From the IMG/VR virus record IMGVR_UViG_2675903559_000015: 5,761 bases of DNA. One strand, given 5' to 3'. This DNA is from a virus (taxonomy: Duplodnaviria; Heunggongvirae; Uroviricota; Caudoviricetes). Below the pieces are notes generated by a model, which made no database searches, was not told where the DNA came from, and saw only the letters and a list, made by a program, of their open reading frames with translations. Positions 2,954 through 3,440 of the stretch are shown here, one piece after another; positions within the stretch are counted from its first letter, which is position 1, and each line of letters opens with the position of its first letter. Made by a program: the position numbers and the translations under genes.

Positions 2954-2967
2954 CACTTATTTTCCCT

Positions 2968-2993
2968 GGCTCGCTTTTGCGGGCCTTTTTTTT
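2968..2993 (+). terminator. Intrinsic terminator immediately downstream of argO copy 2
   Basis: Stem ggctcgc/gcgggcc (one G-U wobble), loop tttt, then T8 tract. Confidence 0.65.
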
Positions 2994-3208
2994 AAATGTC
3001 TCACAATTCAGACGGTTGACAGTTGTCTGTTTTGCGGGGAGTTTGTTAAAAGAAACTGGCATGGTGAATCCCCCTGTGCGGAGGGGCAATCAGCGAGTAG
3101 GTATATGGGATAATCGCGGATTCAGGTGCTGGTACTGAATTCACCGGGAGGCACCCGGCATCATGCAATGGCACATAGCGCCACTCTCCAGCCCTCTCCG
3201 GAGGGGCT
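2989..3208 (+). repeat. Diverged partial copy B of the structured repeat (about 220 bp; lacks the first 42 bp of A/C; 5 substitutions and a 1-bp deletion in the shared part)
   Basis: Aligns to 2505-2725 of copy A; differences include cagacgg/caggcgg, ttgacagttg/ttgactgttg, ctgttttg/ctggtttg, ggcatcatg/ggcaccatg and cagccctc/cagcccctc. Homology resumes at 3274-3290 after a 65-bp copy-B-specific insertion. Confidence 0.8.
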
Positions 3209-3440
3209 TTTCTGTGCCGGATACATCACAGTTTCTGGAACCTTAGGTACTACAGTATCAGTCAGGGTGCTATATTTTCAGATGTGATGAAAGCCTGTCA
3301 GCAGGCAGGGCGTATCGGAAATGACCCAGTAGAGAAAACGTTGACTCAGATACCGGTGCTGAGTTACCGGGAAACCGGCATCACATGACCGCTATCCTGA
3401 GGTGTACTGGCAATAGCGGACACTACCATTTGTTCTTTTT

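Follow-up and report, generated by a model that had tools for sequence, protein, structure and literature searches.

The viral record IMGVR_UViG_2675903559_000015 (Caudoviricetes) contains a stretch of 5,761 nt, here called the window, in which the phage tRNA gene argO and its terminator are followed by a gene of the small RNA (sRNA) family STnc100 (copy B), a second STnc100-like unit (unit 2) and the insertion sequence IS600. An earlier note on this DNA had read positions 2954–3397 as the toxin slot of a backbone resembling that of Shiga toxin (Stx) phages, occupied by non-toxin sequence. Our analysis indicated that this segment is very probably the toxin-free state of the lambdoid late-region 'moron' slot, in a defective Shigella sonnei prophage. 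The locus was 100% identical to a defective prophage of that species.

The left flank was compared by megablast of window positions 2850–3400 with 50,697 phage records. Matches were obtained in 308 records, including 124 named 'Stx2a-converting', 25 'Stx2-converting' and 17 'Stx2c-converting'. Among the matches listed, the Stx2 phages aligned only over query positions 1–142 (window 2850–2991), with identities of 96.5–98.6% and E values of ∼1e-59. This stretch contains argN/argO, the hairpin ggctcgcttttgcgggcc and the T-tract; in phage Stx2a_1447 the matched stretch had the same content and ended 50 nt before the start codon of stxA2. The terminator scan showed a stem of 7 pairs (GGCTCGC-TTTT-GCGGGCC, 6 pairs being G-C) with a loop of 4 nt, followed by T8. 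The argO in front of it, which is the second one in the window, aligned with the argO of Stx2a_1447, VT2-Sakai and phiP27, and in Stx2 phages argO is the tRNA gene directly 5' of stx2. The window was thereby found to contain the 5' flank of the stx2 locus (argO, the hairpin GGCTCGCTTTTGCGGGCC and the T-tract), as the earlier note had stated. The note had also set the divergence point at the T-tract, and the alignments with phage records did place the break inside it, at 2991/2992. At this point the window reads GGGCC-T8-AAATGTCTCAC (over a longer stretch, GGGCC-T8-AAATGTCTCACAATTCAG), whereas Stx2 phages read GGGCC-T6-ATATCTGCGCCGGG, followed by the stx2 promoter and stxA2. No toxin gene or stx coding remnant was detected in the window by tblastn with Stx2A, Stx2B, Stx1A and Stx1B (best E = 0.6), and its list of open reading frames (ORFs) held neither stxA nor stxB, which bore out that a locus collinear with the stx2 insertion point is toxin-negative here.

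The right flank was found immediately behind the T-tract. The earlier note had taken the repeat that stands there, copy B, for different cargo at the toxin position. The repeat is real (∼3001–3219, 95% identical to copies A and C elsewhere in the window), but it proved to be the STnc100 gene that Stx phages carry downstream of stxB. Copies A, B and C all matched the Rfam model RF02076 over its full length, with 132.4, 123.6 and 132.4 bits, respectively; for copy B (3030–3219) the match covered model positions 1–206 with an E value of 1.1e-27, above the gathering score of 47. Homology with the Stx2 phage resumed at window position 2997, corresponding to position 5478 of the Stx2a_1447 locus (L003; loci retrieved for comparison carry such numbers), just before the conserved module start TCACAATTCAG, which lies at 3001–3011 in copy B. 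Window 2997–3087 was 82% identical to L003 5478–5568, a stretch that starts 42 nt past the stop codon of stx2B. Both flanks of stx2AB were found joined in the window with ∼5 nt between them, and because homology resumes at 2997, the slot appears to be empty rather than refilled.

The STnc100/EcOnc27 module was present downstream of stxB in the Stx phage loci L003, L026 and L028. In Stx2a_1447, stx2B ends at 5436 and STnc100 lies at 5511–5726 (153.8 bits). The order in VT2-Sakai is tRNAs, stx2AB, STnc100 (207.7 bits), AsxR on the opposite strand and nanS-p, and that in the Stx1a phage Stx1_699 is stx1AB, STnc100 (190.7 bits), AgvB on the opposite strand and yjhS/nanS-p. The earlier note had considered that Stx phages might also carry the repeat upstream of the toxin, which would have spoken against it; STnc100 was seen downstream of stxB, not upstream. 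In the identical S. sonnei locus (L011) the segment has a late-operon position, with Q (PF03589) at 8607–9428, nanS-p at 12325 and the holin gene at 14329; the window's own part downstream of the slot has been replaced via IS600 rearrangement. In comparison with the stx2 loci of 933W/VT2-Sakai, Stx2c phages and phiP27, the window has the same argO, hairpin and T-tract on the left and, except for phiP27, STnc100 on the right, and it shares the methylase module with Stx2a_1447 and phiP27. It differs in lacking the stx2 promoter, stxA and stxB, so that only the few nucleotides mentioned above separate the flanks. The Stx2e phage phiP27 (L027 3736–4113) shares the methylase-ileZ-argO left module, and lysis genes follow the toxin directly, with no STnc100 after stx2eB.

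STnc100 has been reported 75 nt downstream of the stx2 operon, and a homolog has been detected in outer-membrane vesicles (PMC12370729). The Hfq-binding sRNA EcOnc27/sRNA103 overlaps STnc100 (PMC12711010), and expression and Hfq association have been established for these homologs in enterohaemorrhagic Escherichia coli (PMC7873438, PMC12711010). A review described stxAB as 'bookended' by StxS and the AsxR/EcOnc27 dyad (PMC7873438), and a 2026 preprint described STnc100 and PasD as related prophage sRNAs near Q, a sialate esterase gene and the holin gene (10.64898/2026.05.13.724894). Copy B shares with the STnc100/EcOnc27/sRNA103 of Stx phages the full-length model match, the module start, the core helices, the terminator and the late-region position between the tRNAs (or stx) and nanS-p; it differs in its allele and in abutting the argO terminator without a toxin operon in front. 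By alignment with PasD2, whose 5' end has been mapped at NC_011601 741157, the copy B promoter would consist of TTGTCT (3023–3028) and the extended −10 element TGTTAAAAG (3044–3052), with a 5' end near G3059. The terminator hairpin at 3190–3208 is followed by TTTTCTGTG. By analogy with EcOnc27/sRNA103 and PasD, copy B would be transcribed from this promoter and would act as an Hfq-dependent base-pairing RNA.

Several observations weigh against this reading of copy B. Its promoter is weak by consensus, and no plus-strand sigma-70 site came out of a generic scan; the promoters were therefore assigned from homology with PasD2, for which the 5' end has been mapped. The terminator stem has a 1-nt bulge, and the fold of copy B was no more stable than that of shuffled sequence (z = −0.21). 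Moreover, copy B was only ∼70% identical overall to the Stx2-phage allele, and 'the same gene' therefore means the same family and position, not the same allele.

A role of STnc100 as pR'-tR' late leader RNA, like the 6S RNA of lambda, was considered and rejected: in the record of phage Nil3, the tRNAs stand between tR', annotated right behind q, and STnc100, which comes after them. As for the neighbourhood of the gene, Stx phages carry an anti-sRNA on the opposite strand directly after STnc100, which is AsxR in Stx2 phages (L026 4023–4075, minus strand) and AgvB in Stx1 phages (L028 4021–4080, minus strand). S. sonnei (L011 12103–12191, minus strand) and Nil3 have a related terminator-bearing minus-strand element that matches the E2348C_1409/1408 intergenic sRNA of enteropathogenic E. 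coli (EPEC). The window differs from the Stx phages in holding three STnc100 copies, all of them without an AsxR/AgvB-type antisense partner.

A survey of what occupies the slot in related genomes, as the earlier note had proposed, revealed that the toxin-free junction is common. The terminator-STnc100 junction (window 2954–3235) was found at full length and ∼98% identity in 1026 of the 5426 complete E. coli genomes (∼19%), among them the type strain ATCC 11775, extraintestinal pathogenic (ExPEC) strains and non-pathogens. The locus need therefore not be taken for a precursor or a remnant of a toxin phage, as had been proposed. The junction was also present in phage PhiR49_2 and in Nil3 (from O157:H7), with no stx in the sequenced part of the latter, whose record ends ∼450 nt after argO; identity of the window junction to Nil3, PhiR49_2 and ATCC 11775 was 97–98%. 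Phage vB_EcoP_phi296, a Traversvirus (the genus also of VT2-Sakai), has a close variant of the junction: it contains tRNAs, STnc100 and NanS and no toxin, and 43 nt that the window lacks separate its T-tract from its STnc100 module. The stx-negative phi296, PhiR49_2, lambdoid ATCC 11775 prophage and (partial record) Nil3 have the same order as the window, namely Q, (methylase), ileZ-argN-argO, terminator, STnc100 and nanS-p/lysis genes; the window copy differs from them in being IS-disrupted and in lying in a rearranged Shigella prophage remnant.

Taken as a mechanism, the phage tRNA operon ileZ-argN-argO is closed by the intrinsic terminator, whose T-tract abuts, without spacer, a complete STnc100 gene that ends in a terminator and would be transcribed from a promoter of its own. 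The stxAB operon of Stx1 and Stx2 phages is wedged exactly between the argO terminator and the STnc100 module. In the window, a predicted divergent STnc100/PasD-like gene with an extended −10 promoter comes next, IS600 has parted its body from its terminator, and this IS600 copy later recombined with another one. In toxin phages, Q-modified polymerase starting at pR' reads through the argO terminator into stx. Read-through in the window would cross the sRNA genes and then IS600, in keeping with a defective prophage. The toxin-less arrangement would be the default backbone and not a deletion product.

The competing explanation that survives best, which we consider possible but unlikely, is that copy B and unit 2 occupy the place of the toxin operon, the true counterpart of the Stx-phage STnc100 being a third unit that was lost in the window through the IS600 rearrangement. 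In S. sonnei 53G, which has no IS600 at this position, argO and the terminator are followed by an STnc100 identical to copy B, by unit 2 with its terminator, by a third STnc100 (161 bits) and by nanS-p. The 53G unit by nanS-p (L011 11864–12093) was 87% identical to the STnc100 of Stx2a_1447, versus ∼70% for copy B. Given that the third unit has the closer allele in 53G, it can be argued that copy B and unit 2 were inserted as cargo, which speaks against an empty slot; the interval from the T-tract to the third unit is ∼470 bp (copy B and unit 2), compared with ∼1.33 kb including stx2AB in Stx2a_1447. In this weaker form the earlier claim of different cargo would partly stand, since copy B and unit 2 fill the stx2AB interval in 53G if the third unit is the counterpart, but copy B would still not be foreign. 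However, PhiR49_2 and, as far as recorded, Nil3 contain a single copy-B-type STnc100 right after the terminator and no second unit, and copy B itself belongs to the family of the flank. All STnc100 modules share the 5' boundary TCACAATTCAG, so that which copy counts as the ortholog depends in part on the shuffling of alleles.

The description of the backbone as Stx-phage-like held for one part of it. The module shared with Stx2 phages, and also with phiP27, extends over ∼2 kb only (65-aa ORF, methylase, tRNAs); with the terminator included, it was 93.5% identical to Stx2a_1447 over 1.85 kb. Q, in contrast, has 273 aa versus ∼113 aa in the Stx2 phage, and nanS-p was only ∼70% identical. Descent from an Stx2-converting prophage by deletion of stx2AB, for which the high identity of the left module and the 5-nt direct repeat ATCTG flanking the stx2 cassette (L003 4143–4150 and 5474–5482, with equivalents in L026), a possible mediator of deletion, could be cited, is very improbable in view of a junction that reads T8-AAATGTC-TCAC instead of the T6-ATATCTGTG-TCAC expected from deletion between the ATCTG repeats, a different adjacent STnc100 allele (82% over the first 91 nt), the dissimilar Q and nanS-p, the occurrence of the identical junction in about a fifth of complete E. 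coli genomes, type strain and ExPEC included, and the negative tblastn result for stx. Returning to the toxin-free state of the slot, the elements downstream of copy B could be assigned as follows.

The earlier note had described the ∼180 bp behind copy B (3220–3397) as unique sequence. This was not the case: the stretch was present uninterrupted and 100% identical in S. sonnei 53G and E. coli ATCC 11775, and unit 2 was found at identities of at least 90% in 671 of the 5426 complete E. coli genomes, where the Prokaryotic Genome Annotation Pipeline (PGAP) annotates nothing. Read from the sequence, the extended −10 element TGCTATATT at 3268–3276 precedes the body of the unit. A closing helix is formed by ATGTGATG (3282–3289) and CATCACAT (3379–3386), and the internal hairpins are GCCTG/CAGGC, GACTCAG/CTGAGT and CCGG/CCGG. 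Minimum-free-energy folds gave unit 2 and copy B the same multi-branch architecture, which in unit 2 consists of an 8-bp 5' closing helix, a 5-bp hairpin, a small hairpin, an 8-bp hairpin, a 4–5-bp hairpin abutting the closing helix, and the terminator. The intact unit 2 of 53G has its own terminator, GGCCCATCCG-CTCC-GGTGGGCC-T5; in the window, the body is cut off from it by IS600. Against the STnc100 model, the truncated unit 2 of the window reached 21.8 bits, and the intact copy (L011 11654–11827) reached 30.1 bits (E 2e-4). These values are below the Rfam gathering score and count against membership in the family: by the curated threshold unit 2 is a structural relative, not a member.

In EPEC E2348/69, prophages encode the sRNAs PasD1 and PasD2, whose structure is related to that of STnc100 (Pearl Mizrahi et al. 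2021; Zhu, Shabalina and Storz 2026 preprint). Like the intact unit 2, PasD2 (41.4 bits) is sub-threshold for the STnc100 model, and unit 2 resembles PasD in its 5' closing helix, internal hairpins, own terminator and position between Q/DUF3927 and the nanS-p/holin genes. The identification of unit 2 as PasD was nevertheless rejected, as its global identity to PasD2 was ∼50% and the sequence CCTTGTGAGTTCTGGCTGCGCATG, the published Northern-probe target that includes the PasD seed, was absent. Unit 2 is therefore neither a canonical STnc100 nor PasD, but a separate lineage, and the window copy differs further in being truncated by IS600. Judged from its promoter-like element, fold and terminator, unit 2 would have been an expressed sRNA before its disruption and would have been inactivated by the IS600 insertion.

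The 33-codon ORF of the earlier note does exist in the ORF list, running from GTG 3284 or ATG 3287 to 3388. It had no Pfam match, and the other nearby ORFs tested had no NCBIfam match; its only match was phrog_23557 (unknown function, E 2e-19). We consider the ORF most likely non-coding. That it encodes a small phage protein, with the surrounding 180 bp being its gene and not an RNA gene, seems very doubtful to us. The ORF stays in frame in both alleles of unit 2 (100% and ∼91%), it matches a PHROG, and phage annotators call a 55-aa coding sequence at L006 4239–4406. However, a PHROG made from predicted ORFs on conserved DNA is no proof of translation, no Pfam or NCBIfam family matches, and PGAP annotates nothing there in E. 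coli. No obvious Shine-Dalgarno sequence was seen by eye before the ATG, and the stretch folds as an STnc100 architecture behind the promoter-like TGCTATATT, with the terminator right after the closing helix in intact copies. The two alleles differ mainly in hairpin a, where pairing is kept (GCCTG/CAGGC versus CTGCC/GGCGG), and 5 of the 7 allelic codon differences, located in this hairpin, change the amino acid. The ORF calls behind phrog_23557 seem to come from within a structured sRNA gene, and this protein family may be spurious.

The element behind the unit 2 body was confirmed as IS600. With two overlapping transposase ORFs and terminal TGAGGT inverted repeats, it was 99.9% identical over 1264 bp to copies that PGAP names 'IS3-like element IS600', and it matched the NCBIfam profile transpos_IS3 with 334 bits. 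No 3-bp target duplication was found in the window, where TCC precedes the element and GTC follows it: the flanks read GCTATCC|IS600|GTCTCG, whereas S. sonnei genomes read GCTATCC|IS600|TCCTTCC with the TCC duplicated. The missing duplication points to a recombinant, hybrid-flank copy: two IS copies would have recombined once the insertion had taken place. The insertion in unit 2 is common to most S. sonnei genomes.

Genuine non-toxin cargo of the slot is exemplified by the ORF117/DUF3927 insert. Between the first argO and its STnc100 (1850–2504) lies an AT-rich insert (38–42% GC) with a 117-aa ORF (ORF117) and a DUF3927 ORF, and the same pair was found between argO and STnc100 in an E. coli O104:H4 prophage. 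The 117-aa ORF matched phrog_2873 (unknown function) and no Pfam or NCBIfam family, and PGAP does not annotate it in O104:H4. In the Stx1 and Stx2 cassettes, unrelated 3' spacers end at the same STnc100 module boundary, which suggests independent insertions at one hot spot. We tentatively propose, at somewhat less than even odds, that the interval between the argO terminator and STnc100 is a recurrent cassette-exchange point (stx1, stx2, ORF117/DUF3927, extra sRNA genes) and that unit 2 is an undescribed, normally expressed Hfq-type sRNA forming a third STnc100/PasD lineage. If this is true, ∼12% of complete E. coli genomes contain the unit 2 sRNA without annotation, and IS600 has inactivated it in most S. 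sonnei.

The features of the window are collected in Table 1.

Table 1. Features of the 5,761-nt window
Feature	Position (nt)	Strand	Evidence or remark
ORF, 65 aa	153–350		shared module with Stx2a_1447
DNA methylase gene	501–1559
Complete phage tRNA array ileZ/argN/argO	1600–1849
AT-rich 117-aa ORF	1960–2313
DUF3927 ORF	2349–2480
STnc100 copy A	inside repeat 2463–2751
Partial second tRNA block	2753–2966		last 27 nt of ileZ, then argN, argO
ileZ, second copy, 3' fragment (27 nt, from T-arm on)	2753–2779	+	start of duplicated tRNA block 2753–2966
argN, tRNA-Arg(UCG), second copy	2787–2863	+	ARAGORN; Rfam tRNA model, 58 bits
argO, tRNA-Arg(UCU), second copy	2877–2953	+	ARAGORN; Rfam tRNA model, 70.1 bits
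Intrinsic terminator after argO	2968–2993	+	terminator scan; alignments with Stx2 phages
STnc100 copy B, EcOnc27/sRNA103-type module	2997–3219 (repeat ∼3001–3219)	+	Rfam RF02076
Unit 2, 5' three-quarters of a predicted divergent STnc100/PasD-like sRNA gene	3268–3397	+
33/34-codon ORF, wholly within unit 2	3284 (GTG) or 3287 (ATG) to 3388	+	ORF list
IS600, IS3 family, 1264 bp	3398–4661	−	orfA 4295–4597 and orfB 3441–4259, both minus strand
48 orphan bp	4662–4709		between IS600 and repeat copy C
STnc100 copy C	inside 4710–4998		100% identical to copy A
IraM-like gene	5008–5343	−
nanS-p (DUF1737-SASA), first 125 nt	within 5603–5761		cut by second IS600 at ∼5730

The window combines, as a mosaic, parts of two prophages of S. 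sonnei, P1 (methylase type) and P2 (ORF117-IraM type). Positions 1–1841 and 2753–4661 matched P1 at 100% (99.9–100% for the latter segment), and positions 1773–2751 and 4710–5761 matched P2 at 100%. The joints lie at 1773–1841 (a crossover within argO), 2751/2752, 4661/4662 and 4709/4710; at 2751/2752 there was no homology between the joined sequences. The tRNA block is repeated directly (1649–1862 versus 2753–2966, 97% identity), and a 289-bp repeat containing STnc100 is duplicated around the insert. An exact-pattern scan of genome contigs and metagenome contigs gave no second example of the junction 2751/2752, and exact-protein look-ups of three junction-spanning ORFs gave no match. As no other assembly was found to have the arrangement, it may be either a genuine rearrangement particular to this strain or an error of assembly. 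IS600-mediated reshuffling between P1 and P2 was seen in other S. sonnei genomes; the upstream part of L014 matches the P2-adjacent region.

Further observations were made outside the slot. The 48 bp at 4662–4709 were not found in any fetched locus or in the complete E. coli genomes; they partly match the 'LygF' region of phages 813R8 and 640R1, the match extending 10 nt (AAAACGCCAG) into the repeat, and their minus strand resembles a ribosome-binding site and gene start (ATGAACGAGACT) cut by IS600. The prophage-borne gene at 5008–5343, between STnc100 copy C and the truncated nanS-p, encodes an IraM-like anti-adapter (NCBIfam PRK09919, 162 bits) in a very AT-rich region (29–35% GC). The nanS-p/second IS600 junction in 5603–5761 was 100% identical to P2. 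A strong hairpin with a T-run (CCCGCCGCCGAGCGGG-T6) at 10–33, which in S. sonnei lies downstream of Q, is a candidate for the late terminator tR' belonging to this type of Q.

The toxin-free arrangement seen here at the stx insertion point, made up of known sRNA genes and an insertion sequence, is common and has been described before; the single element that is mildly new is unit 2, an unannotated STnc100-like paralog frequent in E. coli. The practical value lies in annotation correction. What follows the argO terminator is the sRNA gene found beside stx in toxin phages, so it should not be inferred at such loci that the toxin slot has been filled by something else, and phage pipelines mis-call unit 2 as a small protein (phrog_23557). 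The boundaries of the stx2AB cassette were located to within a few nucleotides, at the argO terminator T-tract on the left and ∼15 nt before TCACAATTCAG on the right, and these boundaries could aid assays that separate toxin-positive from toxin-free alleles.

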